NCBI GenBank assembly: GCA_048882505.1
Contig: JBHLRO010000005.1
Span: forward strand, 120,001-152,000
Length of the DNA: 32,000 bases
Direction: 5' to 3'
DNA from: Candidatus Thorarchaeota archaeon
GTDB taxonomy: Archaea; Asgardarchaeota; Heimdallarchaeia; Hodarchaeales; Hodarchaeaceae
The translations under genes were made by a program, and so were the position numbers. Shown one piece after another: positions 2,412 through 31,318 of the stretch. A model generated the notes under the pieces. It saw nothing but the letters and a program-made list of their open reading frames with translations, had not been told where the DNA came from and made no database searches. Numbering within the stretch: the stretch's first letter is position 1; each line of letters opens with the position of its first letter.

Positions 2412-2433
2412 GACCGCAATCGGAGGCATGATG

Positions 2434-4349: not shown

Positions 4350-4359
4350 GTGATACAAA

Positions 4360-12295: not shown

Positions 12296-12949
12296 GTGTT
12301 GGTTGTGCGAAATCTTGGGCCTACAATCTTTCAAGAGGACACCGTATTAACGGAACCTTTGATCGGAAATGGTCCCCTCCGAGCTTATGGAAATCTTAAA
12401 GGACCTTCTTTTAGAATTAACGGACCCTTCGATGTGGAATCAAACATCGAAGTGCAAGAGAATCTTCGTGTGAATGGGCCTAGTGTTATTCATGGAAGTT
12501 TAATCTGCCATCTCCAGTCCAGAATAAGAATCAATGGACCCCTAACGGTGCACCAAGGTATTAAAGGAGGATTTTTACGGATCAATGGGCCCCTTTCGAC
12601 GAGGTTTGCAGAGGTTGGCGGCTTACAGATTCACGGATCTGTAGAAATTGAGGATGATCTTAAGGCCACTCATGAGATTTCCATTACTTTGGGGCACCTA
12701 AAGGCAAAAAAGAAACTTCGGGTCGGAGGAATAGTCTCCGCTCCTTACGTTCATATAAAGGATCCCGGATCGTGGATCAATCTTATTCCTGGGATGAGAA
12801 TATTTCGTAGAACAATTGGACTGCGATCAGTTTCCAGGAGTAAATTCCAGATAAGAAACCTGAGGATTTTCGCTGATCGTCTTGTTCTGGAAGGAGTAGA
12901 GCTACTTGAATGCGATATCAATGTAAAGGAAATGGAAAACGTTGAATAA
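12296..12949 (+). CDS. Bactofilin-like (polymer-forming cytoskeletal) beta-helical repeat protein
   Basis: Five NGP-centred repeats at aa 25, 42, 60, 80 and 97 (17-20 aa period) plus IHGSV; alternating hydrophobic beta pattern; no TM or signal peptide. Start could be GTG 12305. Confidence 0.6.
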   Translation: MLVVRNLGPTIFQEDTVLTEPLIGNGPLRAYGNLKGPSFRINGPFDVESNIEVQENLRVNGPSVIHGSLICHLQSRIRINGPLTVHQGIKGGFLRINGPLSTRFAEVGGLQIHGSVEIEDDLKATHEISITLGHLKAKKKLRVGGIVSAPYVHIKDPGSWINLIPGMRIFRRTIGLRSVSRSKFQIRNLRIFADRLVLEGVELLECDINVKEMENVE

Positions 12950-13052: not shown

Positions 13053-13568
13053 TCAAACAACCAGTCTCAACATGAGGGCAGCAATCCCGAGAAGACAAAT
13101 GGCAGCCCCTATATCTTCTTTCATATTTCCAAACTGAAGCAGTCCCAGGTCAAATTTAAATCGTTCATCTGGATTTTGGGTGTACCTTTTTCTTGCTTCG
13201 AAGCTCTTATAGCTTTTACGGGCTGATGTTCTTGACCAATCTCCCCAGCCAGCCATGATAAAAAAAATTCCGGCCACGAGAAACATAGCGATCCCCCAGA
13301 TCCTGAAAAAGTCAAGATTGGCATTCAAGAAAACATTTACCATGTAAAAAACCAGGGCTGAAATGAAAGAAAATATCACTCCGGAAGCGATCTTTACTCC
13401 AAACGATTTGAGAGAAGTTGGCACAAAATAAGGATAAACGACATCCGCGGAGTTTACTTTTGGGGGATCCCAATAGGATGTTTTTTTGATTGATTTTACC
13501 CCTTGTGAACGGGGACCGGGTTTCTTCCCCTTCTCGTAATCCTCCAAGGCATCTTCTGTTCGAACCAA
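13053..13568 (-). CDS. Hypothetical membrane protein (3 TM), distal to oppF
   Basis: TTG start 32 nt after the oppF stop, same strand; charged N-terminus and three hydrophobic segments. Confidence 0.7.
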   Translation of the reverse strand: MVRTEDALEDYEKGKKPGPRSQGVKSIKKTSYWDPPKVNSADVVYPYFVPTSLKSFGVKIASGVIFSFISALVFYMVNVFLNANLDFFRIWGIAMFLVAGIFFIMAGWGDWSRTSARKSYKSFEARKRYTQNPDERFKFDLGLLQFGNMKEDIGAAICLLGIAALMLRLVV

Positions 13569-13600: not shown

Positions 13601-14608
13601 TCATGTAACTTCATCTAACGGAAAATGGCAAGCAACAAAATGGCCAGGTCGGAGTTCTCTTAACTCAGGCTCGACTTCTGTGCATTTCCTTTGTGCGTAG
13701 ATGCACCTTGTATTGAAACGGCAGGCGGCAGGTGGATTTAAAGGACTCGCCACGTCTCCACGAAGTATGATCCGCTTCCTTTCCAGTGTCGGGTCCGGAA
13801 TTGGAATCGCGGAAATTAAGGCTTGTGTATAAGGATGGAGGGGAGCTACTATAAAATCATCAGCGGGGGCTAGTTCAACTATCTGTCCCAAGTACATGAC
13901 TGCGATTCTATTGCTTATGTGGCGTACGACACTTAGATCGTGTGCTATGAAAACGATGGTCAAATTAAATTTATCTTTAATATCCTTAAGCAGGTTCAAT
14001 ATTTGTGCCTGAACCGCCACATCCAAGGCAGAAACAGGTTCATCGGCAATTATTAGCTGAGGTTCGACAGCTAAAGCACGAGCAATACCGATTCGTTGCC
14101 TTTGGCCTCCACTGAATTCATGAGCGTACCTGAGGGCATGATAGTCCTCCAACCCACATAGTTGAAGCAGTTTGATGACCTGTTCGTGCCGCTCCTGTTT
14201 AGACTTTCCTCGTTGATGAATGACGTAAGGTTCACCAACGATTTCACTAACTGTCATACGGGGATTCAAACTGAGGTAAGGATCCTGAAAAATCAATTGG
14301 GCTTGTCTACGAAACCATAGTTCCCTTTCCCGAGACTCAATGTCATAGATATTAACCCCATCAAATAAAACCTCCCCTGAGGTCGGTGGGATTAAATTGA
14401 GGAGAACTCGTCCAAAGGTGGTTTTTCCACACCCACTCTCCCCGACAAGTCCAAAAATTTCCCCTCTCTTTATATCGATGGAGACCTGGTCCACTGCTTT
14501 AATGAAGCCGATTAATGTTCTTCGAACAATCCCTGTTTGAAATACAGGAAAATGTTTGGTTATCTTCCTTGTTTGAACTATTGGTTCATTTGAAACCATT
14601 GAAACCAC
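13601..14608 (-). CDS. oppF: Oligopeptide/dipeptide ABC transporter ATP-binding protein (OppF/DppF)
   Basis: GLVGESGCGKTT, QLIFQDPY, FSGGQRQR, ADEPVSALD, HDLS, HPYT; C-terminal CRFNTRC..C...VACH Cys cluster. Confidence 0.95.
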   Translation of the reverse strand: MVSMVSNEPIVQTRKITKHFPVFQTGIVRRTLIGFIKAVDQVSIDIKRGEIFGLVGESGCGKTTFGRVLLNLIPPTSGEVLFDGVNIYDIESRERELWFRRQAQLIFQDPYLSLNPRMTVSEIVGEPYVIHQRGKSKQERHEQVIKLLQLCGLEDYHALRYAHEFSGGQRQRIGIARALAVEPQLIIADEPVSALDVAVQAQILNLLKDIKDKFNLTIVFIAHDLSVVRHISNRIAVMYLGQIVELAPADDFIVAPLHPYTQALISAIPIPDPTLERKRIILRGDVASPLNPPAACRFNTRCIYAQRKCTEVEPELRELRPGHFVACHFPLDEVT

Positions 14609-14629: not shown

Positions 14630-15673
14630 CTAATGTTCGATTTCCTCATGGAAATGGCAGGCGACCATATGATCGCCCTCCCAATGAAGCAACGGCGGTA
14701 CTTCTTCTGCACACTTTTGTTTGGCATAACTGCATCTGGGATGGAAACGACATCCTGTTGGGGGGTCAATAAGGTCAGGAACACTCCCAGGTAGCGTATG
14801 CAGCTGATCAACGGTCATATCTAGTCGTGGAATGGCGTTCATGAGGGCAATGGTGTATGGATGACGGGGATCCTTGAAAATGGTCTTGACAGAGGCTATT
14901 TCCACGAGATACCCTCCGTACATTACTCCCACTCGATCGCAATTCTCAGCAATAATCCCAAGATTATGGGTTATCAATAAAACAGACATTCCGAATCTAT
15001 CTTGAAGCGATCGGATAATATCCAAAATTTGGGCTTGAATCGTTACATCCAGAGCTGTTGTTGGCTCATCCGCGATCAATAAAGACGGATTGCAGGACAA
15101 CGCTCTCCCGATCATAACCCGTTGTCTCATACCTCCACTAAATTGATGGGGGTAGTCATTGACTCGTTCTTTCGCGAGGGGTATCCCTACTTCTTGCATA
15201 AGCTGGATGGCTCTTTCGCGGGCCTCCATTTTATCGAGACCTTGATGCAATTGGATTACCTCGGAAATTTGCTCCCCTACTGTAAACACTGGATTAAGAG
15301 AGCTCAGTGGATCCTGAAAAATCATGGAAATTACCGCTCCCCTAATTTTTCGAATCTCACTTTCTTTAAGCTTTAAAAGATCTGTACCGTTATATAGCAC
15401 TTGGCCTCCTTCGATAATCCCGGGAAATCGAACAAGCTTAAGGCAGGACAATGCTGTGACCGTTTTTCCACATCCACTTTCCCCGACAAGTCCAAAAAAT
15501 TCCCCTTTCTTGACATGAAATGATACACCTTCCACAGCCTTAACAATTCCAAATTCCGTATAAAAGTAGGTTGTTAAGTCCTTTATTTCAATAAGTACAT
15601 CGTTTTCACTGGCTTCTTCAATCGTTGTGCTACTACTATCTTGTGCAGACAGGGTCATATTTGGTAACTCCAA
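14630..15673 (-). CDS. oppD: Oligopeptide/dipeptide ABC transporter ATP-binding protein (OppD/DppD)
   Basis: GLVGESGCGKTV, SMIFQDPLSSLNP, YPHQFSGGMRQR, ADEPTTALD, THNLG; C-terminal CRFHPRC..C...VACH. Confidence 0.95.
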   Translation of the reverse strand: MELPNMTLSAQDSSSTTIEEASENDVLIEIKDLTTYFYTEFGIVKAVEGVSFHVKKGEFFGLVGESGCGKTVTALSCLKLVRFPGIIEGGQVLYNGTDLLKLKESEIRKIRGAVISMIFQDPLSSLNPVFTVGEQISEVIQLHQGLDKMEARERAIQLMQEVGIPLAKERVNDYPHQFSGGMRQRVMIGRALSCNPSLLIADEPTTALDVTIQAQILDIIRSLQDRFGMSVLLITHNLGIIAENCDRVGVMYGGYLVEIASVKTIFKDPRHPYTIALMNAIPRLDMTVDQLHTLPGSVPDLIDPPTGCRFHPRCSYAKQKCAEEVPPLLHWEGDHMVACHFHEEIEH

Positions 15674-15705: not shown

Positions 15706-17160
15706 TCAGCGTAACCGAGGATCGAAGGCATCCCGCAAACCATCACCAAGAAGATTAAAGGACATCACTGCAAGGATTATGAAAAGTGCAGGGAAGATTA
15801 CTGACCACCATGATACCGATGCGATAAGAAAGCCGTTGTTTAATTCACGTCCCCAACTGGAAAGATCTTCACTCGTAAATCCGAGAAAAGCGAGACCTGC
15901 TTCTACCAGTATGTTGGCAGACATATTCAAAGTTACCACAACTATCAATGGGGCCAACACATTAGGAAGGATGTGAATAATCATAATCCTTCTATCAGAG
16001 GCTCCCAAAGCACGCGCTGCCTCTACATAGTCAGTTTCACGAACCTGGAATATTGAGGCACGAACAAGACGCGTAATACCCATCCATCCAAAGATACCAA
16101 GCCCAAACATTACCGCAATGACGATCACTTCGGTGGTAACTCCTAACTCCCTTAACAGATTGTCCACCCATTGAGTGTTCTGGATAACTACAATTGCCAA
16201 GATTAGGACAAAATAGAATGGCAAAGTCAGAAAAACGTCCGTAGCTCTCATAATAATCTCATCTACTCTCCCTCGGTAATATCCCGCAAGCAAACCTAGT
16301 GGAAGACCTATAATCAAAGAAATGAAGATGGCTCCAAAACTAATCAAAAGGGAAACACGTGAACCATAAATTAACCGAGTGAATAGGTCCTCCGAATGAA
16401 AATTTGTCCCCATTATATGAGTAAACTGAAAGTATTCTCCTCCGCTAAGGAAGAAATCATCAACTAGAACATCCGATCCGCCAGTGTCCTTTATAAGAAC
16501 AACTTCTTCAGGATTACGAACCGAAAGGCCATAGTCTTCATGAAGATCAAGTCTCACAAAGGTCCAGCCACTCGGAGAGGGCTCAATAAGAAGATCTATC
16601 TGGTCCTCCATATCATCATCGTACCTAAAAACAACCGAAAGAGTTGTTTGATCAGGACCATCTAGATAAACCCTGAAGTTTAACTCCATATAGTAAAAAT
16701 CTTCATTGGTCGAAATGTCTTGGGAGAGTTCTCCATTACCTAAATTGCTCCCTGCGGCAAAGGTTCCCACTCCTCCTAAAATTCCTTGTTCTGTAAGATT
16801 AACCTTATTCCATCCATTGAGTATCCATCCTAAGTTCAACTCAAAACTGGGATCTAGTAATCGATTAGCGTATAAATCTTCGAATAAACCTCCTTCCTTG
16901 ACACCAGGCGCTTGATATCCTGGAGAATAACCTGGATAGTTTAGCAAGAACTGTTCCTCTGGATCATAAGGCGCGATAAAATCGGCAAAAAACGCCATGA
17001 TGATCAAAAGAACAACAAAGAGCAAACCTATTAAGCCTGCTCTATTCTTTCTAAATCTACGAAAACTGATGGAAAGCTGGCTACCAGACACTTCTTCTGC
17101 TCTTTTGTATTTCTTTTTCAGGAGCTTCTTTTTTCGTCTCTTTGTCTGTGATTCAAACAT
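15706..17160 (-). CDS. oppC: Opp/Dpp-family permease OppC with a large extracellular insertion
   Basis: RRFRKNRAGLIG, APYDP, HIMGT..EDLFTRLIYGSRVSL, GYYRGRVDEIIMR, EAA loop DYVEAARALGAS, LGDGLRDAFDPR; ~160 aa extra between QAPG and HIMGT. Confidence 0.92.
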   Translation of the reverse strand: MFESQTKRRKKKLLKKKYKRAEEVSGSQLSISFRRFRKNRAGLIGLLFVVLLIIMAFFADFIAPYDPEEQFLLNYPGYSPGYQAPGVKEGGLFEDLYANRLLDPSFELNLGWILNGWNKVNLTEQGILGGVGTFAAGSNLGNGELSQDISTNEDFYYMELNFRVYLDGPDQTTLSVVFRYDDDMEDQIDLLIEPSPSGWTFVRLDLHEDYGLSVRNPEEVVLIKDTGGSDVLVDDFFLSGGEYFQFTHIMGTNFHSEDLFTRLIYGSRVSLLISFGAIFISLIIGLPLGLLAGYYRGRVDEIIMRATDVFLTLPFYFVLILAIVVIQNTQWVDNLLRELGVTTEVIVIAVMFGLGIFGWMGITRLVRASIFQVRETDYVEAARALGASDRRIMIIHILPNVLAPLIVVVTLNMSANILVEAGLAFLGFTSEDLSSWGRELNNGFLIASVSWWSVIFPALFIILAVMSFNLLGDGLRDAFDPRLR

Positions 17161-17189: not shown

Positions 17190-19262
17190 TTATAGGGAGA
17201 CTCTTGGATCGATAATTGAATATAAAATATCAGTCAGGAGATTTGCAATCAATATCAGAAGTGCTGTAACCATGATAATTCCCATAACAGTGGTATAATT
17301 AAAATTGTTGAACTGTTGGACTGCATAGCTACCAAGACCCGGCCAAGCTAGAGTTGTCTCTGTGAGGGGAGCTCCTCCTAAAAGTCCACCAATGCTTAAC
17401 CCTATGTAGGTCACGAGAGGGATCATAACATTCCGAAGGGCATGCCGCCAGATTATCGACCGTCTCGAAAATCCGTAAGCTTGGGCAGACAATATATAGT
17501 CCTGCCTGATAACTTCCAATAATCCAGACCTCACTAGCCGAACGAAAAGGGCGAGGGAGATCAAAGTAATGGCTGTGATCGGAATAACTAAATGGAACGC
17601 TAAGTCCCAGAACTCCCAGGTAAAAAGTTGTCTGAGAAACGTATCAAGATATAGTCGAATGTACATGGATGTGGCCCCCTGCGCAACATCCCATGATAGA
17701 CTCAGGCCGGCTGAGGGGAAAATAGGAATATAGTATGAAAAAAATACGATTAGGAATAAGATAAACAGAAAAATTGGGATTGAAAGCCCGACTGCTACAA
17801 AAAGGGCAATCGCGTTATCAGTAGTAGAATACTGTTTGAGAGCGGCATAAATTCCTAGAGGGACTGATATCAACAAGGTTAAAATGAGGGGGATGACTGT
17901 AATCAGCAGTGTTGGGCCGACTCGACTGCTTAATAGGTCGGCAACTCTTCCGCCACCCAATATTGAAATTCCCATGTCTCCCATGGCGAAATGGAGAAAC
18001 CAGTTAAACCATTGGGCCTGGGGTGGTGCATCTAAGCCATAAAGCCGAGTAAGTTGTTCTCGGAGAAGTGTTCTATTGGTCCCTGGACGACTTGTTTGCA
18101 CGATTAAATCTATAGGATTACCTGTAGTGATCATCAGTGCATAACTAATTATTGATACCCCGATGAAGATCGGAATAAGAGAAAACAGCCTTCGGATTGT
18201 GTATTTAACCACTCTATCATCTAGAAAGGGTTTTAAGGCTCTCGGTACGTTAAGCAAGAGCAGGAAGATCAAGAATATGACTACAACCTGGGCTCCGATC
18301 TTAAACAGGTCTATCTGGAGACTATAAATTGACTCAAGGCCGGTATCGAGTGCAACCAACCATTCGATTCCCATAACTAGAAAAAGGAGCGCCATTAGTA
18401 ATAAAACCAGATAGAAGAGCCTCCAAGAACCTCGTTTGAACCTCAAGAAGTATTCACCCATTCTTTCAGTGAATGTTGGATCTAAAATGGGGGAATATGG
18501 CTTCTTCAAGCTCATTCTCAGTAGAAGTAATCCACAGATGAAAATAACCAATGGATATGTATAAATCTCTAGGTTCAGGTAAAATCCAGCAAGTACGGTC
18601 GTCGCGGAAGATCCTAATGGGAGATCCAGAATGGTCTCCAAAATGCCGTCCCTTTCCACGGAAACATAATTGGGCTGGTACAAGCTAAATACAAATGCTG
18701 TCAGGAGAAGGAAAACAATCCCTGTGATTAGAATATCTGAAGATTGGTTTTGTCTTAATGTCCATCTGGCAATCCTTAATTCTGAGGTTCTATACCTCAT
18801 GAACAGACCACTTAGAAGGATTATTACTGTAATAAGGCCCAGTAGAAGGACAGGGATTAATGTAATGCTAATTAACGTGTAGATTGACACGATTAATAGT
18901 TCATAATAGTAGATAAAGAAAAATAACACATCAAACCCAGTAAATGAGAAGGAAGTTATGAGTAGGAGGATACTGCCGAGAACTGATATCTCTCTGGAGC
19001 GAACTGTAATTCCAGAACCGATGTGAAGTTCCCAATCCTTTAGTTCACCCAATAGGAGGAATAATAGTGACAAAAGTACCATCACAATGAGGACAAGGGA
19101 GGGTGAAAGCGAAACGTTTGGTAACTGGATTACAACTGACTCTGACAACCTGCCAGGAAATAAATATCCCCATACCGCTGCCACAATAGCCAGAAGGGTT
19201 ATTAATCCAAAGTTCCTCAATTGGGTATCTTTAGTTGAAAACTCACCAGACAAATATCTCAC
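17190..19262 (-). CDS. oppB: Opp/Dpp-family permease OppB with a ~350-aa N-terminal multi-TM extension
   Basis: OppB core from VVKYTIRRLF (starts 18212): YGLDAP..QWFNW, GDMGISI, RVGPTL, RSGLLEVIRQDYILSAQAYG, HALRN, YSIIDPRV. Confidence 0.92.
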   Translation of the reverse strand: MRYLSGEFSTKDTQLRNFGLITLLAIVAAVWGYLFPGRLSESVVIQLPNVSLSPSLVLIVMVLLSLLFLLLGELKDWELHIGSGITVRSREISVLGSILLLITSFSFTGFDVLFFFIYYYELLIVSIYTLISITLIPVLLLGLITVIILLSGLFMRYRTSELRIARWTLRQNQSSDILITGIVFLLLTAFVFSLYQPNYVSVERDGILETILDLPLGSSATTVLAGFYLNLEIYTYPLVIFICGLLLLRMSLKKPYSPILDPTFTERMGEYFLRFKRGSWRLFYLVLLLMALLFLVMGIEWLVALDTGLESIYSLQIDLFKIGAQVVVIFLIFLLLLNVPRALKPFLDDRVVKYTIRRLFSLIPIFIGVSIISYALMITTGNPIDLIVQTSRPGTNRTLLREQLTRLYGLDAPPQAQWFNWFLHFAMGDMGISILGGGRVADLLSSRVGPTLLITVIPLILTLLISVPLGIYAALKQYSTTDNAIALFVAVGLSIPIFLFILFLIVFFSYYIPIFPSAGLSLSWDVAQGATSMYIRLYLDTFLRQLFTWEFWDLAFHLVIPITAITLISLALFVRLVRSGLLEVIRQDYILSAQAYGFSRRSIIWRHALRNVMIPLVTYIGLSIGGLLGGAPLTETTLAWPGLGSYAVQQFNNFNYTTVMGIIMVTALLILIANLLTDILYSIIDPRVSL

Positions 19263-19274
19263 CTAACCAAATCA

Positions 19275-19353
19275 AACATGCACGGCCAAAATTATTGCAA
19301 TAAATGCGCATGTTCGACACTTCGTTTAAAAGATTTTGTTGCATGCAACAGAA
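19275..19353. promoter_or_regulatory. oppB promoter region: TATA-like element flanked by palindromes
   Basis: Minus-strand CAAAATC-TTTTAAA (TATA-like ~19324-19332). Perfect palindromes TGTTGCATGCAACA (19337-19350) and TTATTGCAATAA (19292-19303). AACATGC/GCATGTT inverted repeat (19275-19281/19308-19314). Confidence 0.45.
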
Positions 19354-19600
19354 TATCCTGTTGGAATCAAAAGGAGAGAATGGAAAGAGGATCATTTTCA
19401 ACCGATTTATAAAAAATGATTTCTAATTAAGGTTTGGTGAGAACATCATTACTCAAAAAAGTCCTTCATTGGGACGTGAGAACAATAGCTCAGAGACTGA
19501 GAACTAGGACTCCGAAGAGAGGCCCATTGCAATAGAAAAGCATGATTTCTTCTCAATATCAATTCTGGAGAGACGATTCCAATTTGAGCCCAAAATCAGG

Positions 19601-19620
19601 AGAAAATGTTTTTAAAAAAC
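19601..19620 (+). promoter_or_regulatory. Candidate BRE/TATA promoter of oppA
   Basis: AGAAAATG-TTTTTAAA ~75 nt upstream of the ATG at 19689. Confidence 0.45.
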
Positions 19621-19688
19621 TTTGGGTCGAGGTAAGTGTTCAAGATAACAATCTTGAATGACAAAAAGAAACATAGGAAATACAAAAA

Positions 19689-21569
19689 ATGCGAAAACTA
19701 AAGCTATTAATCGTGGTGGGCTTGTTTCTCGGTAGTATGATGGCCCTAGCAGTGACAGTCCCTGTATCCGCTCAAAGAGAAGGACCAGAATGGTTCTATG
19801 ACAATTTAACGGCAGCGGATCGGCTTAAAATCAGGACTGCATTTGATCTTGCCATTCCTCGGGATCAAGTCATCACAAGCTTGATGGATGGTTGGGCATT
19901 TAAGATTGCCACACCAGTCACCAAGGGCGCATTCGGATACGACGAAAACGTTGTTCCCAGAGAATTCAATCAGACAAAAGCATTGGACCTATTAGCCGAA
20001 GTCTTTGGCTACACGTACAATGAAAGCGCTGATGATATTGAGGAAAGAGAAGGATATTTCCCCATGACCCTTGCTGCACCCACATCCCGTGATGACCGAG
20101 TGCAATGGGCTACATTGGTCACCAAGTCCTTCCAAGAAATCGGAATTGACGCTACGATCAAATTCGGTAATTGGAACATCATGGTTCCCCGTGTTTTCGA
20201 TCCAGCTCCCGAAGTAGTAGGAAAAGACTATAAACATGGTGGAATTGATGCCTTCTTTGTCGGTTGGACTGGCGATCCATTCCCAGACATGAGCCAGTGG
20301 TTTACCAGATCGAACTTTGTACCTGCAGGAACCAACCTTGCCTATATCGACAGTACTGAAGTCGAAGGTATCATCAACGAAACATTAGATCCAGCCAATA
20401 CCGTTGCCGAACGAGAAGCTGCTTGGACAGATTTCCAGGAATGGTTCTACGACAACATTCCCTATCATATCATGCTTCAAGAATTAAACCTCTGGGCGCA
20501 TGATCCAGACTTGCACGGTGGACAATATGACTCCTGGGGTTGGCCAAACTATTACAACCTAACCCATGGCGGAACTGATGGCGATGTTAACACCGATGGT
20601 GACAAACCTACAGTCATCGTTGTTTCTACTCCTGGTGAATTCATTGATTCGAATCCCTGGATAGTAGGCTCGTATTACGATGGCCTAGCAGTCTATCCTA
20701 TCTATGAAAGCTTGCTCTCTGGTCCGTTACCCGACGACTTGGGAACCTATTATGGTGCCGTCGCGGAAACATGGAGCGGAAGCGCGGATGGACTAGAATG
20801 GACCTTTAATCTCCGATCAGATGTTAAATTCAGCAACGGCGATGCTCTGACGGCAGACGACGTTGTCTGGAGTTATGAACAAGTTCTGAAACCAGACGTA
20901 GGTGCATACTCCCAGGTCTTCTATTCTACGTACTTTGATACCATTGAGAAGGTTGATGCCGACACTGTCAAAGTCACCTTGAAACAAGGATATGCATACG
21001 CAGAAGGATTAGCTGGCGGTGTACCAATCCTTGACATGTCCGAATTTTCCGGAGTTGCTGATGCTGACTTTGAAAGCCACTCAACCAATACAGGCACTCC
21101 AGCCCGTGGTTCTGGCCCCTATATGTGGGACGCTGCCAATTCAAATTGGGCTCAGAGTACAGCTAGGTTGACCCTCAACCCACACTACGTTGCTAGCAGG
21201 TATCTATCCGGCGCCAATCCACACGCCATCCAGAATATCGAAGTCAAGCTCTACACAACAGCGGCATCCACAGTTGCTGATCTAAGCAATAACATATTGG
21301 ATGTTATTGACGCCAACACCGGTATTCAGCCATTCCTCGATGACCTTAACGCCAGTGCAAATGCCGAGATCGTTATATCTCCCGACTTGGGTCACCAAGC
21401 CTTCTATCCTAACCAAAACTCGCCATACTGGGGAATGAATCCGAAAGACCCCCGTGTACTCTACCCAGAGGATTATGTATCTCCTGTGGATATCGTGGGT
21501 ATTTTGGCGGCTCTTATGACCCTTGGTTTGATTGGTCAGGTCTATAGGTACAGAAAGCGAAAGAACTAA
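19689..21569 (+). CDS. oppA: Family-5 (OppA/DppA-like) ABC substrate-binding protein, circularly permuted, C-terminally anchored
   Basis: Signal peptide. All family-5 motifs are present (IRTAFDLAIPR, KALDLL, QEIGID, VGW, YESLL, AETW..DGLEWTFNLRSDVKFSNGDALTADDV, GSGPY, NPHY), but the halves are swapped. TM + YRYRKRKN tail; divergent from oppBCDF. Confidence 0.9.
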   Translation: MRKLKLLIVVGLFLGSMMALAVTVPVSAQREGPEWFYDNLTAADRLKIRTAFDLAIPRDQVITSLMDGWAFKIATPVTKGAFGYDENVVPREFNQTKALDLLAEVFGYTYNESADDIEEREGYFPMTLAAPTSRDDRVQWATLVTKSFQEIGIDATIKFGNWNIMVPRVFDPAPEVVGKDYKHGGIDAFFVGWTGDPFPDMSQWFTRSNFVPAGTNLAYIDSTEVEGIINETLDPANTVAEREAAWTDFQEWFYDNIPYHIMLQELNLWAHDPDLHGGQYDSWGWPNYYNLTHGGTDGDVNTDGDKPTVIVVSTPGEFIDSNPWIVGSYYDGLAVYPIYESLLSGPLPDDLGTYYGAVAETWSGSADGLEWTFNLRSDVKFSNGDALTADDVVWSYEQVLKPDVGAYSQVFYSTYFDTIEKVDADTVKVTLKQGYAYAEGLAGGVPILDMSEFSGVADADFESHSTNTGTPARGSGPYMWDAANSNWAQSTARLTLNPHYVASRYLSGANPHAIQNIEVKLYTTAASTVADLSNNILDVIDANTGIQPFLDDLNASANAEIVISPDLGHQAFYPNQNSPYWGMNPKDPRVLYPEDYVSPVDIVGILAALMTLGLIGQVYRYRKRKN

Positions 21570-22025: not shown

Positions 22026-24905
22026 ATGCCAGAATCTTTGAAGAAAATGTTCGATTTGAGTTACGTATCGTATCGTTATGTCATGAACAACCGTAAGGCT
22101 CTTTTGGCAACATTACTAGGCTTAGTAATTGGTGCTACAATCATGGCAGCAAGTGCAATGCTGGTAGACTCATACAATTCTGAATTAATTGATGAAATAC
22201 TTTATTCGGAAGAGAGATCGAACTTTAGTGGTGATATCCAAATCGATCTTACCCCAACCGTCGATAGTGGGGAACTTGCTTGGATAAATGACTTCGATGT
22301 TTTTCCTCATTTGGTGAATGAATCTTTTGGTCAGGCCGATTATGAGGGCTATTTCATCAAACAGCAATGGTTTGGGGAATTTTTACTAGGTTATTGGTTG
22401 ACTTTTCCTCTAGCATATCAGAATTACCATCCTGCGTTTGTACGGTCAGTAGAACTAGACCTTTTAGCAAGTCTCGAGTCTTATTTAAATCCTGGTAGTC
22501 GTTTACCTAATAACTACACGGAGATAATTGTTGTCTCCATGCAGAATGAATCGTTCTTAGAAATTGGACAGGTAATTTCAGTAGGAATTTCCCCAGCAGA
22601 CGCATATTGGGCTACATCCACCGCTGTCAATGTATCTATTGTGGGAATGTTGGATTATGAAAAAGTGGAAGATTTATTTCTAGAATTATACTTCCTCCAA
22701 CTAAATCCTCTTAAAAGAGAATCAATGCCTCCAGATAGTTTTTTTATGATAGCTTCTTTGGAAAACGCCTTAAATTTAACCAATCAAATAATGAATGAAA
22801 ATTTCAAGGCTATTTCATCTATTTATGGGAAAATCTTCCTTGACAACGAAAAATTCAATGTTTATTCTCTACCATTTGAGAAAGAAAAGTTAAACGCGTT
22901 ATTTACTCAGATTAATAACAGGTTTGTAAATATTGAGAATGGCAGTTTATCAATCGAAGTTATGGATGTTTACGGACTTCTTGAGAATCTTGACGCCGCA
23001 ATCGAAGATGTTAGGATTTTACAGGTTCTCTTATTATTGATTGATATTCCTGTGATAGCCATTGCTATATATCTGGTCAGTTTCTCCTCTAGTTTGATTA
23101 AACGTCAGAAAAAGGAAACTATCGGGATCCTTAAAACTCGTGGAGGATCGTGGCAGCAAATAACCGTCTTTCTCCTCGGAGAGTCAGTTGTCGTAATCGG
23201 AATTACCCTTATCAGTGGTTTGTCACTTGGCTACGTCGTTACGAGTACTATCATTCGATCGATAGGTTTTCTTGATTTTTCAGGTGCAGAACTACCAGTA
23301 GTTGTCACGGCTTCTCATATTCAATTGCTCCTTTTTTTCGTGGTTGGAGCTACGATTATCATTAACACTTCCGCAATAATTCAATATACCAGAATGACTA
23401 TTCAGGAATCAGTTATTCCAGTCGAGGAGAGTACTCCAGTCTGGAAAAATTATTATATTGACGTTTTTGCAATACTTCTTGGTTTGGGAGGCTATATTGT
23501 ACTTACAGAGCTAGGAAGGATTATTGGGTCATCACTAGGACCTCTCCCCTTGTTAACTGTTGTTTTTTTAATTGTGGGTGTTCCGACGCCGTTTTTACTG
23601 TTTTTTGGTGTCATTCTCTTAATTTCAAGACTATTTCCAGTTTTTTTGGATAGATTAGCTCAATTCCTTTGGAGAAAGAGAGGAAAGCTGGGCGCTTTTG
23701 CCTTAAGAAACGTGGTACGCCATAAAGAAGCTGCAAGTCAGGCAGTAATCCTTATTACTTTGGCTATCTCGTACACAATCATCTCGGGCTCTTTAACCGT
23801 ATCTGTTGATGAAACGAAAAAAATGGGTTATTATTTTTATACGGGAGCAGATTTAAAAATCAATATCGTTGGCGAATATAGTAATCAATCATTCCTCGAT
23901 GAGGTAAGGAATGTCTCTGGGATTTCTCGTGTCACCCAGACTTTTTTCACTCATACACCTAGTGAAACAGGGAGACAATACTATGTATTCTCATTTGTAG
24001 ATCCTAAAACTTATGCAGAAGTCGCTTTTTTCGATGAAAGCCGATTTGGTTTAAGTTCGCCTTTGTCAGACCTTATGGACAAGATTGCTGATAACAAATC
24101 AATCATCCTTTCTAAATCGAATCTAGATGAACAGCCCAACCTGGAGATCCATGATGCATACGGATTCCATTTTTACAATAAAACCCTGTTTTATGCCGGA
24201 GTCTCCGATTATAGAAACTATAGTATTGTGGGCACATTTAATCTATGGCCCCAACTTCAAGAATACGAATGGGCTCCTAGTGGTGCAATATTTGCGGTTG
24301 CTAGCATAGGTATGTTCTATGACCTAAATACTTTCGAATATCTAGCAATTGAAGAGTCAAGCGTGCTTTGCGAATTAGAACCGTCAGCTGATCCAGCAGA
24401 AGTCTACTACAGAGTAAAATATCTGTCACATAAAACTCCTCATACCTATTCAGCTATAGTTGATTATCAAAATTATCTGGCGAGCACAAAACGTCGTTTT
24501 ATGATAGCAGTTTTGAACGCCGCGCTCCTAGCTTGTATCCTGGTAACAGTTTTGGGGTCGGTTATGTTCTCACTTTTCACATTCCTTGAACGTGGAAAAG
24601 AAAGAGGTGTGGAAAGGGCGTTAGGTATGACGCGTATTCAGACAGCAAAGTTGTTCGCAATGGAAGGATCAATAATACTTCTTATAGGGATCATTGTTGG
24701 ATTTGGAGTTGGATTAACCAACACCTCAATTTTCCTGCTGGTTTTTGAAATGGGCAGGACGATACCCCCGATTGTTGTGAACTATCCGCTAGAATTCATT
24801 ACTTTTTTCCTGGCGTTCGTAATTCTAGTGGCATCGATAGGAACGCTCATAATAGCATTTCAATCGTCTAAAAAGGATATAAGCCGAGTTTTGAAGGTGG
24901 AATGA
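22026..24905 (+). CDS. FtsX/MacB-like (type VII ABC) permease, large two-repeat form
   Basis: KETIGILKTRGGS and ERGKERGVERALGMT FtsX motifs; ALRNVVRH; GADLKI; two large sequon-rich extracellular domains. Followed by two ATPases. Confidence 0.88.
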   Translation: MPESLKKMFDLSYVSYRYVMNNRKALLATLLGLVIGATIMAASAMLVDSYNSELIDEILYSEERSNFSGDIQIDLTPTVDSGELAWINDFDVFPHLVNESFGQADYEGYFIKQQWFGEFLLGYWLTFPLAYQNYHPAFVRSVELDLLASLESYLNPGSRLPNNYTEIIVVSMQNESFLEIGQVISVGISPADAYWATSTAVNVSIVGMLDYEKVEDLFLELYFLQLNPLKRESMPPDSFFMIASLENALNLTNQIMNENFKAISSIYGKIFLDNEKFNVYSLPFEKEKLNALFTQINNRFVNIENGSLSIEVMDVYGLLENLDAAIEDVRILQVLLLLIDIPVIAIAIYLVSFSSSLIKRQKKETIGILKTRGGSWQQITVFLLGESVVVIGITLISGLSLGYVVTSTIIRSIGFLDFSGAELPVVVTASHIQLLLFFVVGATIIINTSAIIQYTRMTIQESVIPVEESTPVWKNYYIDVFAILLGLGGYIVLTELGRIIGSSLGPLPLLTVVFLIVGVPTPFLLFFGVILLISRLFPVFLDRLAQFLWRKRGKLGAFALRNVVRHKEAASQAVILITLAISYTIISGSLTVSVDETKKMGYYFYTGADLKINIVGEYSNQSFLDEVRNVSGISRVTQTFFTHTPSETGRQYYVFSFVDPKTYAEVAFFDESRFGLSSPLSDLMDKIADNKSIILSKSNLDEQPNLEIHDAYGFHFYNKTLFYAGVSDYRNYSIVGTFNLWPQLQEYEWAPSGAIFAVASIGMFYDLNTFEYLAIEESSVLCELEPSADPAEVYYRVKYLSHKTPHTYSAIVDYQNYLASTKRRFMIAVLNAALLACILVTVLGSVMFSLFTFLERGKERGVERALGMTRIQTAKLFAMEGSIILLIGIIVGFGVGLTNTSIFLLVFEMGRTIPPIVVNYPLEFITFFLAFVILVASIGTLIIAFQSSKKDISRVLKVE

Positions 24906-25757
24906 ATGTTTCTTGAATGTCAGGATGTATTTAAGCTTTATAAGGATCCAGTAACTAAAATCCAGGTGCCAGCTTTACGTGGCGTTGAATTATCGGTTAA
25001 TAAGGGTGAATTGAGTGCGATCATTGGGCCCAGTGGAGCAGGTAAAAGTACTCTAATCAATTTGATCGGAGGAATTGATAAACCATCCTCAGGTGATATT
25101 ATCGTTGATGGTCAAACAATTAATAAGCTCAAATCAAAGGAGTTAATCCGATATCGTCGCCATAACATCGGATTCCTTTATCAAAACCCTAAGAGAAACC
25201 TTATCTGGAATATAACCGCTTTTCAAAATGTTATCGTCCCAATGAAATTGGCTAGCCAGTGGGGACTTGAAATCCAGAAACGAAGATCCCTTGAATTATT
25301 GGAGAGAGTCGGTTTAGAAAGAAGGGTACACCACAAACCTCACGAATTATCTGGAGGGGAAGCGCAACGTGTTGGAATAGCTGTTGCTCTAGCTAATGAT
25401 CCAGCCATAATTCTTGCAGATGAGCCAACCGGCGAGCTTGATAGTGTTACCACCTTCAAAATCATCGATTACTTTCAGAAGATAAATAAAGAGCTAGGTA
25501 CAACATTTATCGTCGTTACCCATGACCATCGTTTTGCTGATATGACGGAGCAGGCTGTGAATATCCTTGATGGTCAAATAATCGGTTTACACCGTAGAAT
25601 TGATAGTAATAGACCTGTTTCAGAGCGAGAAGAAGTTTTTTATGTAGATGACCATGGAAATCTACGCTTACCAGAAGAGATGCGTAAGACAGCAGGTGTT
25701 AACAAACACGTGAAGCTAGAACTAATCAATGGCCGTATAACTATCATTCCTGCATGA
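24906..25757 (+). CDS. LolD/MacB-like ABC ATPase with C-terminal AbrB/SpoVT-like domain
   Basis: GPSGAGKST, LSGGEAQR, ADEPTGELD, VVTHD; tail VDDHGNLRLPEEMRKTAGV..VKLEL....ITIIPA resembles a swapped-hairpin AbrB fold. Confidence 0.9.
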   Translation: MFLECQDVFKLYKDPVTKIQVPALRGVELSVNKGELSAIIGPSGAGKSTLINLIGGIDKPSSGDIIVDGQTINKLKSKELIRYRRHNIGFLYQNPKRNLIWNITAFQNVIVPMKLASQWGLEIQKRRSLELLERVGLERRVHHKPHELSGGEAQRVGIAVALANDPAIILADEPTGELDSVTTFKIIDYFQKINKELGTTFIVVTHDHRFADMTEQAVNILDGQIIGLHRRIDSNRPVSEREEVFYVDDHGNLRLPEEMRKTAGVNKHVKLELINGRITIIPA

Positions 25758-25770
25758 GGTGATCCTTGAA

Positions 25771-26475
25771 ATGAGTGATTCAGTGGCAACCGAGCCCATT
25801 ATTGAACTAGAAGGGGTGAGTCAGCGATACAACCTTGGTATGAACGTAATCGATGCTCTCACAGATGTGAATCTCGTAATTCACGCACATGAATACGTAA
25901 TTGTCATGGGACCAAGCGGGAGCGGTAAAAGTACCTTATTAAACACTATAGCCGGATTAGAAGCGCCCTCAGCTGGAAATGTTCGGATCTTGGGGAAGGA
26001 TTTACTGAAATTGAATGATCGCCAAAGATGTGAGATAAGGCGTCATAAGCTTGGCTTTGTTTTCCAGTTCTTTAATCTTCACCCTATTTTGACCGCCCAG
26101 GAAAACGTTGAATTACCAATGTTAATTGCGGATATTGATAGATCAATTAGAGAGAAACGAGCCAAGGAACTGTTAAATTTGGTTCATCTCGAGCATCGAT
26201 TGAATCATCACCCACATGAGCTTTCTGGTGGTGAAAAACAACGTGTGGGAATTGCCCGAGCTTTAGCAAACGATCCAATGATCATACTAGCTGATGAACC
26301 TACAGGAGACATGGATTCTGTCGCTGGGAATGAAATAATCTCAATAATTACAAAACTTAACCATGAATATGATAAAACGATAATATGTGTTACCCATGAT
26401 GAGGACATGCTTAAACCAGGGATGAGACTTATTCGTATGGATGATGGGCACGTGATTTCCGATACATATGTTTGA
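25771..26475 (+). CDS. LolD/MacB-like ABC ATPase
   Basis: GPSGSGKST, GFVFQFFNL, LSGGEKQR, ADEPTGDMD, VTHD. GAGGTGA at 25756-25762 favours ATG 25771 over GTG 25759. Confidence 0.93.
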   Translation: MSDSVATEPIIELEGVSQRYNLGMNVIDALTDVNLVIHAHEYVIVMGPSGSGKSTLLNTIAGLEAPSAGNVRILGKDLLKLNDRQRCEIRRHKLGFVFQFFNLHPILTAQENVELPMLIADIDRSIREKRAKELLNLVHLEHRLNHHPHELSGGEKQRVGIARALANDPMIILADEPTGDMDSVAGNEIISIITKLNHEYDKTIICVTHDEDMLKPGMRLIRMDDGHVISDTYV

Positions 26476-26842: not shown

Positions 26843-28075
26843 TTATACGATTTTTCTCCGAATCCGGAGCACAGCTAAAATGACGATCGCAAAAAATAAA
26901 GATTCTAAGATCATTAGCCCACTTGTAGTTTGTGCTTGATTTGACGGTTGGGGAATTAAATATGCTCCAGTGGGATGATCCACGAAAGATTCGTTAATGT
27001 ATATTTTGCTTTGAGTATAAAAAACACTTGCAGCAAACCAATAGGCAATATAACCTGGAAGGGGCTTTAAAGACTGACCTTTAAGGGGGCCCGAGATCGC
27101 TTTTCCTTTTAAGTTCCATGTGGTACCAGATTTGTCTTGGAAGGAAAATTCGTCGTTATTCAAGGAAGTCCCTTTGGTGAAGTCAAGGATCGTACCATCT
27201 GGGAGTTCTGAATTAAATGCAACGACTAAATGAGTGTTTGGATTTGATACCAAGATAGAAGCACTTGTGCCGTACGATACATTTACTATCGGAGTTTTCA
27301 TCAATTCCTGAAAAGGAAAAACGAAGGTCTGGGCTTCCAATTGTAAGATGTAAGACCTTTCCTTGATTGGAAACCAGTTATACGGTTCCTTTCCAAAACG
27401 ATAAGCGCTGGGGAAGAAGATAGTGTCTCGCGAATCATAAGACCCGTAGGGATTGTAATTATAGTTCTTATGGTACCCCGTATTCCTGCTTAGTATGAGA
27501 GTATCTGGATATAAAGTTTTCCAAGTTTTCCAAGTAGTTTCAACCATATTTCCCCGATCCAAAGCTCCATCCAATTCTCCACACCAAACGATGCCGTACA
27601 TCTGGTTCCAGAATGTATCAGTCTTTCTATCATAAAAAACCAGATTGTTTTCATACAGATAGCCAGTAGTCCCTAATGTACTACCTCCTATTGAACTCGT
27701 GTGAAAAAGGATGCCCGAAGCTGTTAGAGGACAGTAGGTTACACTAAACGTCGTTGCGTCACCGATTCGATCATTAACGATCTCATGCCAGGTTAAGATG
27801 TCAATTGGATAGGCTCTAGCACTTCCATTAATCTCGACACCCAGAATGAACTTGTCAGAATAATCTTCGCCTATTGTGCTTTCGAATTCTTCAATTGTAA
27901 TGAATTTTGGGCTATCTATGGCAGGAATACCATCCTTTGATACCCCTCCGCTGACAAGTTCTGGACCACAGGGATTTGTGGGTGAAAGGGGCCTACCAGA
28001 AATCAACTTGAAATTGAACGTTATCACTAGGGTCGTTGAAAAGGTAATAAAAATAAGAAATATCGTTCTCTTCAT
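26843..28075 (-). CDS. DUF3179-family secreted protein with C-terminal membrane anchor
   Basis: GGVSKDGIPAIDSPKF, ARAYPIDILTWHEIVND, TYCPLT, LYENNLVFYDRKTDTFWNQ, W.TWKTLYPDT, YWFA; N-terminal signal; TTSGL-TM-RIRRK tail. Confidence 0.85.
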   Translation of the reverse strand: MKRTIFLIFITFSTTLVITFNFKLISGRPLSPTNPCGPELVSGGVSKDGIPAIDSPKFITIEEFESTIGEDYSDKFILGVEINGSARAYPIDILTWHEIVNDRIGDATTFSVTYCPLTASGILFHTSSIGGSTLGTTGYLYENNLVFYDRKTDTFWNQMYGIVWCGELDGALDRGNMVETTWKTWKTLYPDTLILSRNTGYHKNYNYNPYGSYDSRDTIFFPSAYRFGKEPYNWFPIKERSYILQLEAQTFVFPFQELMKTPIVNVSYGTSASILVSNPNTHLVVAFNSELPDGTILDFTKGTSLNNDEFSFQDKSGTTWNLKGKAISGPLKGQSLKPLPGYIAYWFAASVFYTQSKIYINESFVDHPTGAYLIPQPSNQAQTTSGLMILESLFFAIVILAVLRIRRKIV

Positions 28076-28612: not shown

Positions 28613-31318
28613 ATGGATCTAACGCTGCCATGGAGGAATGTGACACGAGAACGGTGGCGAACGATTTTGTTGGTGGGAGGGATTATAATCACAGTTGGCT
28701 TGGAAGCTGGAATCGCAATTTCGGTTGACTCGCTATACGAGGACTTTATAGGCAGCCATCGTGGGAGGAACCTTACGGATATCACTCTTCATCCAAAGAA
28801 TAATGCAACCTTGAATGAAATAAAGGAAAAAATGGACACCATTGCCCAGGTTGCAGGCGTTCGGAAAGTAAGTCCTGTAGCGACGTTCACCCCGATAGAT
28901 GAATTACCCGATTTAGTAGAGCTGCCTAATAATGTCATTCTATACGGATTAGATCCAAATACCCATCCAGATTTTCCTGGTTTAACAGTGATTGCCGGAA
29001 ATAAAACCCTGGAGCCTGGCGAGGTCATTATATCTAGCACGATTTCTTCGGAACTTAACCTATTCCCAGGAATTCGGTATTCTGTTTCAGAAATTCCTGA
29101 TTATGGTTTTTCTGGAGTTACTGTATATTGCTCTGGTGTCATTGAAGATAATTCGCAGTTCGGGAACTATCTTGGTTTTTTTTTCATCCTAATTGATCTT
29201 GATTACTTTACAAGCCTTTTCAGTGACCAAAATTACTTAAATTTTCATCTTGTAGTTGAATTAGACGAATTTATCGAAATTAATAACATTGCAGCACGTT
29301 TGGACAGCATCGTCGGCAACGACTTCTACGTTTACCGTGAAAAGGCCCTGAGTGATACTGAAATCCTTGCTTTTCAATCTTATCAAGTGGCTATGAACTT
29401 GATAGTTCTTGCTTCCTTTGTTGTGGAGTTCCTTTTTATTACAAACATCCTTACGATTAATGTGAGAGAAAGATACCGTGAATTTGGAATTTTAAGAGCC
29501 AATGGTGCAAGTACCTTCCAACTTGTCGCGATGCTGAGTGTTGAAATCCTTTTTTATAGCCTGATTGGCAGTTTCTTTGGGGATCTCCTCGGAATAATAA
29601 TATCCATAATCTTCGTTGTGTTTCTTAATGCGAGTTTCCCTCAAATTAGCATTAACGTTCTGGTTCTCAGCCCAAGTTCATTAATATCAACTTTCTTTAC
29701 AGGCATATTCTTGGCGTTTATCGCGGGCCTATATCCGATTTTTATTGCAAGTACTATGGCTGTAGTACAAAACATTCATTGGCGTATGAGGGCCAAGAGG
29801 AAACGTTTCTCCCAGTGGGTGTATTTGATACTAGCTGGGACATTGATGTCCATTATAGGAATTGGTACAACCTATTTCATAGGGCCAAGCCGATTTCTGT
29901 CTTTTGAGTTAATTTCATGGCATTTTTTTGCAGTTTGGGCTACCTTCCTTGGCATCGTTTTGATGGAAGGGGGATTTCTCAATTTTCTTCCCCTGATAGG
30001 GAGCAAGCTTCTGTTTTGGCATGGAAAGGTTCCAAAAACCATAGCCAGCAGAAATATAGGACGGCAGTCTCAGAAATCTGTTGTTACTATAATGGTGACA
30101 GCACTTGCCCTTTCGTTTATTCTGACAATTGGAATTGTATCTGCTGCAATAATTGATACTGTTCCGAAGTACTACGACGAGCAATTCGGAAAGATAGATA
30201 TCGTTGCACAAACAACTGATGACGCCCAGGTCTCCATATCTTTTGCCCAGGAACTGGTTGAGGATAACTCTCTTATTGAACGCGCAGCCTTCTTACAACA
30301 ACAACGCACTCTGATTAATAATATTGAAGCGTCTGTCCTCGGAGTCAACCCCGAGACATATGGTTATTTTTTTATTGATAATATTTTGTTACCGGCAGAT
30401 CCGCAAGTAGCCGAACTACTAAATGCCTCTACGAACAGTGTCATAATAAGTGATCTTCTTCTTGTCAGGATAGGTGCACGAATCGGAGAAAACATTACCG
30501 TTATGACTTCGCAAAACCGGTCACTAGAAGTAGTTATAAAGGGTATTACCTCTGGAAATCCGTTTTTATTACACGGTAACTATATTTATTGCTCGTATTC
30601 GCTATTTCAACAGTATTGGTATAATGAAACCGCAAACTGGTTTATTATGTCGACTGTAGAAACCGATATACCTCTGAATACCATTACCGATAGTTTATCT
30701 AACAAATATTCTGCATTCAGCGAGGTCATAGGGGTTGATTTCTATTCCCAGCTTATTGAAAACTCGTTGATTATCCAGCGAGGTTTCTTCCAAGTTCTGT
30801 TCATTCACACCTTTCTTCTTTCAGGCTTAGCCCAGTTTGTATCAATATTAGTAACCACTTTGAATATGGAGAGGGAAGTGGGGATATTAAGGGCATTGGG
30901 GTTGTACAAGAGGGAAGTGTTCACCACTTTTCTTGCGGAATCAACTCTACTCGGAATATCTGGAGTTGTTATAGGTGTAATCAACGGTATCATCGGATCA
31001 GAACTTCTCTCTTGGTACATTAGCTTATCTATTCCCATTCAAACATCAGTTACATTCAATAGTCCCTTTATAATCTACTGGGCTCTATTCTCTCTCTCCA
31101 TAACAATTGCGAGTACTGTGGCACCCAGTTACAGGGCATCACGACGGAATATCGCTAATGCTATCAATTATTACGCGCCTATCCGCAAATCTGTCATCCT
31201 AGTTATATGGGAAGGCTGGGATGGTTATATTGATGATTATCTCGTACAAAGGGACGAATCAGTTCGATCGAATCTTCTTCGCATTTTCTCTAAAGGGAAA
31301 AAGAAGAAAACCCAATGA
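28613..31318 (+). CDS. FtsX/MacB-like permease, paralog of 6275..8926
   Basis: Collinear with 6275..8926, e.g. FVVEFLFITNILTINVRERYREFGIL vs FLVEFLFVTNILTINVSERAKEFGIL, YYDEQFGKID vs YYEERFGKID, GNPFL in both. Confidence 0.9.
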   Translation: MDLTLPWRNVTRERWRTILLVGGIIITVGLEAGIAISVDSLYEDFIGSHRGRNLTDITLHPKNNATLNEIKEKMDTIAQVAGVRKVSPVATFTPIDELPDLVELPNNVILYGLDPNTHPDFPGLTVIAGNKTLEPGEVIISSTISSELNLFPGIRYSVSEIPDYGFSGVTVYCSGVIEDNSQFGNYLGFFFILIDLDYFTSLFSDQNYLNFHLVVELDEFIEINNIAARLDSIVGNDFYVYREKALSDTEILAFQSYQVAMNLIVLASFVVEFLFITNILTINVRERYREFGILRANGASTFQLVAMLSVEILFYSLIGSFFGDLLGIIISIIFVVFLNASFPQISINVLVLSPSSLISTFFTGIFLAFIAGLYPIFIASTMAVVQNIHWRMRAKRKRFSQWVYLILAGTLMSIIGIGTTYFIGPSRFLSFELISWHFFAVWATFLGIVLMEGGFLNFLPLIGSKLLFWHGKVPKTIASRNIGRQSQKSVVTIMVTALALSFILTIGIVSAAIIDTVPKYYDEQFGKIDIVAQTTDDAQVSISFAQELVEDNSLIERAAFLQQQRTLINNIEASVLGVNPETYGYFFIDNILLPADPQVAELLNASTNSVIISDLLLVRIGARIGENITVMTSQNRSLEVVIKGITSGNPFLLHGNYIYCSYSLFQQYWYNETANWFIMSTVETDIPLNTITDSLSNKYSAFSEVIGVDFYSQLIENSLIIQRGFFQVLFIHTFLLSGLAQFVSILVTTLNMEREVGILRALGLYKREVFTTFLAESTLLGISGVVIGVINGIIGSELLSWYISLSIPIQTSVTFNSPFIIYWALFSLSITIASTVAPSYRASRRNIANAINYYAPIRKSVILVIWEGWDGYIDDYLVQRDESVRSNLLRIFSKGKKKKTQ

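Follow-up and report, generated by a model that had tools for sequence, protein, structure and literature searches.

The substrate-binding protein (SBP) gene at positions 19689-21569 (+) of the window (the whole 32,000-nucleotide stretch analysed here, positions 120,001 to 152,000 of contig JBHLRO010000005.1 from a Candidatus Thorarchaeota archaeon, assembly GCA_048882505.1) encodes a permuted, not a canonical, member of the SBP_bac_5/cluster C superfamily. The collinear order of SBP_bac_5 proteins is Ia-II-Ib-III-Ic, in which I, II and III denote the domains, whereas the window protein reads III-Ic-Ia-II-Ib. As expected of a natural circular permutant, both segment orders occur among its homologues, the old termini are joined by a linker and the new termini lie at a single site. 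With a probability that we put at roughly 0.88, the product is a true and conserved circular permutant of the family-5/cluster C (OppA/DppA/NikA) type, predicted to be functional, exported and membrane-anchored.

Reversed order of the family-5 match

The gene is an open frame of 626 amino acids (aa) with an ATG start. Its product matches the SBP_bac_5 profile (PF00496) at 185 bits (E 3e-54, Pfam cut-off 32.4), and this match falls into two stretches. In a six-frame search of the genome, aa 43-203 (nt 19815-20297) align with profile positions 213-356 (E 3e-19), and aa 354-580 (nt 20748-21428) with positions 2-212 (E 1e-34); scored separately, one piece reaches 120.7 and the other 70 bits. The profile is thus split precisely at the 212/213 boundary, with its two parts swapped. 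A reading of the DNA made beforehand without database searches (the sequence-only reading) had proposed a permuted family-5 SBP of this kind. The two reversed matches confirm that proposal, no single collinear full-length alignment was returned by the profile search, and all motifs and coordinates that this reading had listed are present in the protein.

The same arrangement is seen against proteins of solved structure. In a phmmer search of PDB sequences, residues 280-504 of AppA (1xoc) align with query residues 44-280 and residues 70-208 with query residues 359-501, and HbpA (3m8u) and YliB (1uqw) show the same reversed match. For Bacillus subtilis AppA, for DppA and for NikZ, each solved structure aligns with both halves of the window protein in swapped order, so that, as had been anticipated, the first half corresponds to the C-terminal and the second to the N-terminal part of one and the same family-5 structure. 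The III-Ic part matches canonical cluster C proteins at E 2e-9. The NCBIfam models Opp4A, NikA, GsiB and DppA pick out the same two regions, again reversed, with Opp4A positions 317-547 covering query residues 46-284. All of them score far under their equivalog cut-offs (Opp4A, the best, reaches 65 bits against a cut-off of 650), and no substrate can therefore be transferred to the window protein.

Permuted relatives and their distribution

A word-indexed search returned 11 full-length relatives with 31-50% identity and the same order, signal and anchor, and an exhaustive HMMER search gave 46 matches below 1e-30 among 1.84 billion representatives. When 177 retrieved proteins were mapped to the query and to a hidden Markov model (HMM) of the permuted core, 50 had the order of the window protein (type A); these are cluster representatives from JGI, ENA, NCBI and Logan assemblies. 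A second cut point defines type B (40 of the 177), in which the chain opens with strand 1 of the domain III core, while the initial ~75 residues of domain III stand at the other end, before the anchor. Canonical order was found in 49 proteins. At least two rarer orders were also present: one starts at HMM position ~150 (P0049 and G286:C663:891-2663), and the other, Ib-III-Ic-Ia-II (P0085 and P0132), is nested among type B. The relatives share a conserved breakpoint, as the sequence-only reading would have it.

This recurrence bears directly on an artefact, in which the halves of a normal SBP gene, or two tandem genes, were mis-joined by assembly or gene calling. Tandem arrays and tandem fusions of these genes do exist, and a mis-join is thus conceivable in principle. 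Against it, the frame is continuous, the junction is conserved, and the same order, with the signal first and the anchor last, is found in the 50 type-A cluster representatives and in no fewer than 8 genomes of the window's genus. The type-A relatives come from independent metagenome-assembled genomes (MAGs) of Candidatus Hodarchaeota/Promethearchaeota; a mis-assembly at the junction, named beforehand as the finding that would overturn the permutation, fails for the same reason. An artefact is therefore hardly credible, and the circular permutant is the reading followed below.

The source genome (4.3 Mb in 83 contigs, 94.5% complete) carries three type-A, one type-B and four canonical family-5 SBP genes. 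Besides the window gene, its type-A paralogs lie on C6 (650 aa) and C20 (957 aa), and its type-B SBP (575 aa, G000:C6:~86970-88466, locus L001) adjoins OppD/OppF-like genes. Among 301 sampled Asgard genomes, type A was seen only in the genus-level group of the window (Hodarchaeales-type MAGs; 8 of 21 genomes, including the window's own), and type B was spread over several families. Type B is also found in a Bathyarchaeota chromosome (L021).

By hydropathy, a signal peptide, a C-terminal helix and a basic tail are present in all archaeal-type members of all three orders. The sequence-only reading had suggested that the permutation serves C-terminal anchoring, a suggestion that is not supported, since signal peptide and transmembrane (TM) helix with RKRK tail are shared by relatives of this clade that are in canonical order, and the anchor is thus not a consequence of the permutation. 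What the permutation alters is the site on the fold at which the anchor is attached, not the presence of an anchor.

Predicted fold

The AlphaFold2 (AF2) model of the window protein, computed from an input of 37 same-order relatives, has a mean predicted local distance difference test score (pLDDT) of 88.9 and a predicted template-modelling score (pTM) of 0.84; it is weak only at the signal-peptide end and in the linker between the halves. With VIA-align, model residues 299-568 superpose on AppA residues 17-266 with a Z score of 24.2 and a root-mean-square deviation (rmsd) of 1.9 A over 246 aligned residues. Residues 1-263 of DppA (1dpp) match the model at Z 22.5, and ~50 other cluster C entries do so at Z >21. 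Foldseek aligns ~240 columns with template-modelling scores normalised to the target (TMt) of 0.35-0.42, and all of its top matches belong to cluster C. Sequential structure aligners cover just one half of the window protein per match. Since such aligners can cover one half only and the annotation is an ordinary SBP_bac_5, permuted variants are invisible unless they are sought.

A natural control is provided by the relative P0031, in which residues 281-848 run across the boundary of two tandem permuted units and thus read Ia-II-Ib-III-Ic. The model of this stretch (pTM 0.86) aligns with YliB at Z 31.9 over 470 of 487 residues, and with DppA (1dpe) at Z 31.0 over 469 residues (rmsd 2.5 A, TMt 0.83). 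In the model, halves of the permuted family that stand in canonical order yield a complete canonical fold. The comparison of a re-permuted chain with DppA, which had been proposed as a check, is thereby answered by a close relative whose natural canonical-order stretch is predicted to fold as a full-length DppA-like protein.

Anatomy of the permuted chain

The chain begins with a predicted Sec-type signal peptide (aa 1-28, 19689..19772, +) that has an MRKLK n-region, a hydrophobic core and a VSA cleavage-like site and lacks a lipobox Cys. The AF2 model has a helix at residues 2-20 and low pLDDT at 17-27 in this region, with which the N-terminal hydropathy of the family agrees. The mature N-terminal segment (aa 29-43, 19773..19817, +) holds a W-x-Y-x-N motif and represents the downstream half of the cut hinge-1 loop. 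W35, Y37 and N39 are conserved at >=90% in the alignment of relatives, and the motif recurs in tandem fusions and nested canonical relatives, where it lies inside the junction between Ib and III.

Domain III and the returning segment Ic follow (aa 44-292, 19818..20564, +), and correspond to the canonically C-terminal part by the Pfam, AppA 1xoc and Opp4A matches. The Ic-to-Ia linker (aa 293-306, 20565..20606, +) joins the ancestral C- and N-termini; in type A it consists of the canonical C-terminal end (NWT) fused to the canonical first strand, as judged by junction comparison. An 11-residue Gly/Asp-rich insertion in this linker belongs to the window protein only, being a gap in 11 of 11 aligned relatives, and pLDDT drops below 50 at residues 299-302. 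The canonically N-terminal part, Ia-II-Ib, occupies aa 307-590 (20607..21458, +) according to Pfam and VIA-align.

The fold is followed by a conserved tail, LYPEDY..P.D (aa 591-601, 21459..21491, +), which represents the upstream half of the cut hinge-1 loop and would tether the protein to the membrane. Its residues Y592, P593, D595, Y596 and P599 are invariant or conserved at >=90%, and its pLDDT is 69-71. The predicted TM helix (aa 602-619), the basic stop-transfer tail RYRKRKN and the stop codon complete the gene (21492..21569, +); the helix is seen in the sequence and in the C-terminal hydropathy of the family, and the corresponding AF2 helix spans residues 602-625. The C-terminal anchor that the sequence-only reading had described is therefore present, and the spacing between fold and helix is only ~10 residues.

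Junction comparison places the cut in the Ib-to-III hinge loop, and against canonical relatives the cut is clean. The breakpoint had been placed at DPRV|R; this is the correct hinge loop, but the real cut lies ~8 residues past DPRV, after LYPEDY. A duplicated hinge segment at both termini was considered and dropped, since canonical junctions show a clean loop cut and no duplicated remnant.

A side observation concerns the sequence next to the anchor, where P-V-D in the window protein corresponds to a recurring P-F-(G/S)-D motif that abuts the C-terminal helix and RKRK tail (window 21480-21566). P-F-(G/S)-D precedes the anchor in the relatives P0045, P0053, P0060, P0052, P0035 and P0032, and it may serve as a signal for sorting or processing. 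PGF-type tails occur in some relatives, and P0035 (E 2.5e-4) and P0032 (1e-3) match the NCBIfam model Heimdall-CTERM under its cut-off; an NCBIfam scan of the C-terminal 67 residues of the window protein gave no sorting-domain match. No PF09721 exosortase/archaeosortase match was found in the genome with what is an insensitive model, the control being positive in only 1 of 14 genomes. The ectodomain contains five N-x-S/T sequons, at aa 39, 94, 111, 230 and 289; they are of note since in Promethearchaeum syntrophicum, an Asgard archaeon in culture, the dominant N-glycoprotein is a family-5 SBP (PMC11284389).

Evolution of chain order

For the trees, the matched pieces of each protein were cut out and set in a common order. 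In a tree of 151 rows the archaeal anchored proteins form one clade (support 99), within which chain order changes at least 19 times. A 64-row tree of type A with outgroups contains a 53-row clade at 100/95. Two canonical proteins of this clade, P0060 and P0065, branch within type A (100/97), and a third, P0054, is the sister of a subclade of 13 rows. A topology that keeps all type-A proteins together as a clade is rejected by the approximately unbiased (AU) test, run on 27 rows under LG+G4 (delta lnL 107, p 8e-12).

Several extant proteins contain more than one permuted unit. P0031 (1217 aa) and P0032 (1524 aa) each hold two complete type-A units in one chain, and two units also share a single 1536-aa frame in a same-genus genome (G062:C170:36934-40362). 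A further frame, of 1801 aa in G208:C27, was observed to hold two complete permuted SBP units. The fused units of these four proteins fall in different sub-branches of the tree, and the proteins are therefore fusions of diverged paralogs, which may work as dual-receptor proteins. At locus L020, three type-A genes stand in tandem. The junctions are informative as well. In the doubles P0031 and P0032, the C-terminal tail that closes unit 1 is joined straight to the N-terminal motif of unit 2. The nested canonical proteins contain, between Ib and III, the type-A tail motif, a spacer of ~30-35 residues and then the type-A N-terminal motif; in canonical proteins of the outgroup this junction is a short loop.

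Taken together, the trees, fusions and junction scars fit a route of duplication, fusion and truncation with more than one switch of order, in which the signal peptide and anchor are kept. Tandem duplication and in-frame fusion of neighbouring paralogs would create the new order, the outer halves would then be lost while the signal peptide and anchor are retained, and the order would be reset more than once. We infer that the tandem fusions are actual intermediates of this route.

Type A could instead have arisen independently several times from canonical ancestors with a long hinge-1 loop, the same permissive site being cut repeatedly, with no single origin and no reversion. Parsimony on the 64-row tree is a near tie (4 gains against 1 gain and 2 reversions), the junction content of P0060, P0065 and P0054 fits either direction, and several independent cut points are known from other lineages. 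A single origin is simpler, in that the breakpoint, the terminal motifs and the architecture of the Ic-Ia linker are identical across the whole 53-row clade, and the fused double type-A proteins, the intermediate that a reversion requires, do exist. Repeated independent gain thus seems possible but on balance unlikely.

The divergent OppBCDF operon and other genes of the window

The SBP gene is separated by a divergent intergenic region (19263..19688, from the map of open reading frames) from a permease operon on the opposite strand. Its first gene encodes an OppB-like permease of 690 aa (17190..19262, -) with a BPD_transp_1 core at aa 467-689 by Pfam. This core is preceded by ~345 extra residues that are strongly hydrophobic and resemble a multi-TM region, and aa 1-345 have no Pfam match. 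The full length of OppB is kept at 52-57% identity in the Hodarchaeota/Promethearchaeota MAG loci L014, L017 and L022; the type-B locus L021 of Bathyarchaeota matches aa 338-690 only, and its permeases are of normal length. The OppC-like permease (484 aa, 15706..17160, -; OppC_N and BPD_transp_1 by Pfam) is kept at 64-67% identity in L014, L017 and L022. Its first extracellular loop is enlarged by ~180 aa (aa ~63-243), an insert that is absent from L021. This insert has no Pfam match, and its structural neighbours in the ESM Atlas are beta-sandwiches of CBM_4_9 type with template-modelling scores of 0.55-0.61.

The ATPases OppD (14630-15673, -) and OppF (13601-14608, -) both have ABC_tran and oligo_HPY domains by Pfam. 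Linkage to OppB/OppC permeases and to OppD/OppF with oligo_HPY is characteristic of cluster C SBPs and is found here. Across the orthologous loci identity is ~80% for OppD and ~72% for OppF (72-82% overall) and 45-48% for the SBP. The divergent SBP/OppBCDF layout, with the same long OppB and OppC, is kept in L014, L017 and L022.

The GC content is ~41% throughout the window. Three very large FtsX-family permease genes are located at 6275-8926 (-), 22026-24905 (+) and 28613-31318 (+), encoding 883, 959 and 901 aa; the 959-aa gene is followed by two genes for ATP-binding cassette (ABC) ATPases (24906-25757 and 25759-26475) and is syntenic, downstream of the SBP gene, in L017. A second complete ABC importer, probably for sugar, is encoded at 948-5463 (+) and consists of a family-1 SBP, two permeases and a MalK-like ATPase with OB/TOBE domains. 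Furthermore, the window contains a gene for a DUF3179 protein (26843-28075, -; E 2e-74), a 217-aa open reading frame (12296-12949, +) with a weak Bactofilin match under the cut-off (E 6e-3), and an open reading frame at 13053-13568 with no Pfam match.

Proposed hinge mechanics and function

In cluster C topology the chain crosses twice between the lobes, from Ib to III and from III to Ic. Since the window protein is cut at the Ib-III crossing, one covalent crossing (III to Ic) is left. The ancestral N- and C-termini, which both belong to domain I, are connected by the short linker, and the chain is open at the first hinge loop between the lobes (Ib to III). Both conserved terminal segments would sit at the site of the former second crossing, where they may form a non-covalent clasp at the hinge. 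The C-terminal segment enters the membrane helix within ~10 residues, and the protein would thus be tethered at the hinge and not via domain I. Venus-flytrap closure of lobe I+II against lobe III would capture a solute that is most likely peptide-like or oligosaccharide-like, and this solute would then be handed to the divergently encoded importer of OppBCDF type. In the close family, conservation extends to a GW..P..D segment, which aligns with the peptide-binding loop of HbpA/AppA.

The loss of one hinge crossing can also be read as a sign that the protein is decaying or serves outside transport, for example as a surface receptor, a chemoreceptor or a structural surface protein. The faster divergence of the SBP relative to OppD/F across the orthologous loci would suit such a role, and at the surface of P. 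syntrophicum a family-5 SBP ranks with the proteins of highest abundance and glycosylation, and chemoreception has been considered for it (PMC11284389). Nevertheless, the gene is intact and conserved, its fold is confidently predicted, a complete divergent OppBCDF set is always paired with the SBP in the orthologous loci, and the segment at the peptide-binding loop is retained. Decay or a non-transport role is accordingly improbable, and a functional SBP of permuted order is preferred.

A number of points weigh against this reading of the protein and its history. The mutual placement of the two halves in the model of the window protein depends on AF2 confidence alone (pTM 0.84), and the control alignment used for P0031:281-848 consisted of canonical relatives, which favours the canonical fold. 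For the window protein, ligand, export, anchoring and docking are all inferred; its sequence neighbours are peptide and nickel binders that score far under the NCBIfam cut-offs, while the OppC insert resembles a carbohydrate-binding module. The group submitted to the AU test was named only after the tree had been seen, and the model applied was a simpler one. Finally, the tree is compatible with either direction of the order changes, from type A to canonical or several times from canonical to type A.

A bolder and quite speculative proposal, which we consider rather doubtful as a whole, is that the order of Asgard/archaeal family-5 SBPs is labile and reversible through tandem-fused doubles, and that type A is a mechanically distinct 'single-hinge' SBP, pinned to the membrane by its hinge, that co-evolved with a remodelled OppB (an extra polytopic domain) and a remodelled OppC (a CBM-like ectodomain), the whole amounting to a new subtype within the Opp-class ABC importers.

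Comparison with known systems

Canonical cluster C SBPs (AppA 1XOC, DppA 1DPE/1DPP, YliB/GsiB 1UQW, NikZ/NikA and OppA) share the three-domain fold of the window protein piecewise, with Z 22-24 for Ia-II-Ib, and have the same operon partners, OppB, OppC, OppD and OppF with oligo_HPY; they are likewise exported and presumably Venus-flytrap binders. Unlike theirs, the chain of the window protein is rotated, with domain III at the start of the fold and Ib last; its hinge 1 is cut, and its anchor exits from the hinge region and not from domain I. Closer relatives are the canonical-order archaeal Opp/Dpp SBPs such as P0060, P0086 and P0100, which belong to the same clade (99 in the 151-row tree) and have the same signal peptide and helix with Arg/Lys tail. 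Their order is Ia-II-Ib-III-Ic and most have a long Ser/Thr-rich stalk before the anchor, compared to ~10 residues in the window protein. In P. syntrophicum, DSAG12_03090 is a family-5 SBP with terminal helices and the dominant N-glycosylated surface protein, its chain order not being discussed there (PMC11284389).

Family-5 SBPs are among the best-studied transport receptors of bacteria and archaea and are common scaffolds for biosensors, and in the one Asgard archaeon examined by proteomics such proteins are major surface proteins (PMC11284389). Standard annotation labels the permuted forms plain "SBP_bac_5". Canonical, rotated, fused and apparently switched-back orders occur in one clade and sometimes in one genome, which amounts to a natural experiment on the tolerance of a hinged two-lobe protein to the rewiring of chain and tether. 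It would also be a rare case in which the duplication-fusion route to circular permutation is legible in extant intermediates and junction scars.

No natural permuted SBP of the family-5/OppA type was found in the literature (open-access papers and preprints). The nearest published precedent is TpMglB-2 (Tp0684) of Treponema pallidum, a permuted glucose-binding protein designated 'Type Ic / Cluster Bc' for which a link with tethering was suggested (PMC4990184). This is likewise a natural circular permutation of an ABC-transporter SBP that occurs in tethered proteins and is conserved in its family. However, TpMglB-2 belongs to cluster B, not cluster C, and its permutation adds a fourth hinge crossing, whereas one is removed in the window protein; all sequence and structure matches of the latter are to cluster C and none to a cluster B fold of the TpMglB-2-like 'Cluster Bc' kind, and the resemblance is a functional analogy only. 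Furthermore, neither tandem intermediates nor reversions were reported for TpMglB-2 (PMC4990184). In comparison with these systems, what the locus adds is the Asgard type-A clade, together with its multiple cut points, fused intermediates, junction scars and remodelled OppB and OppC.

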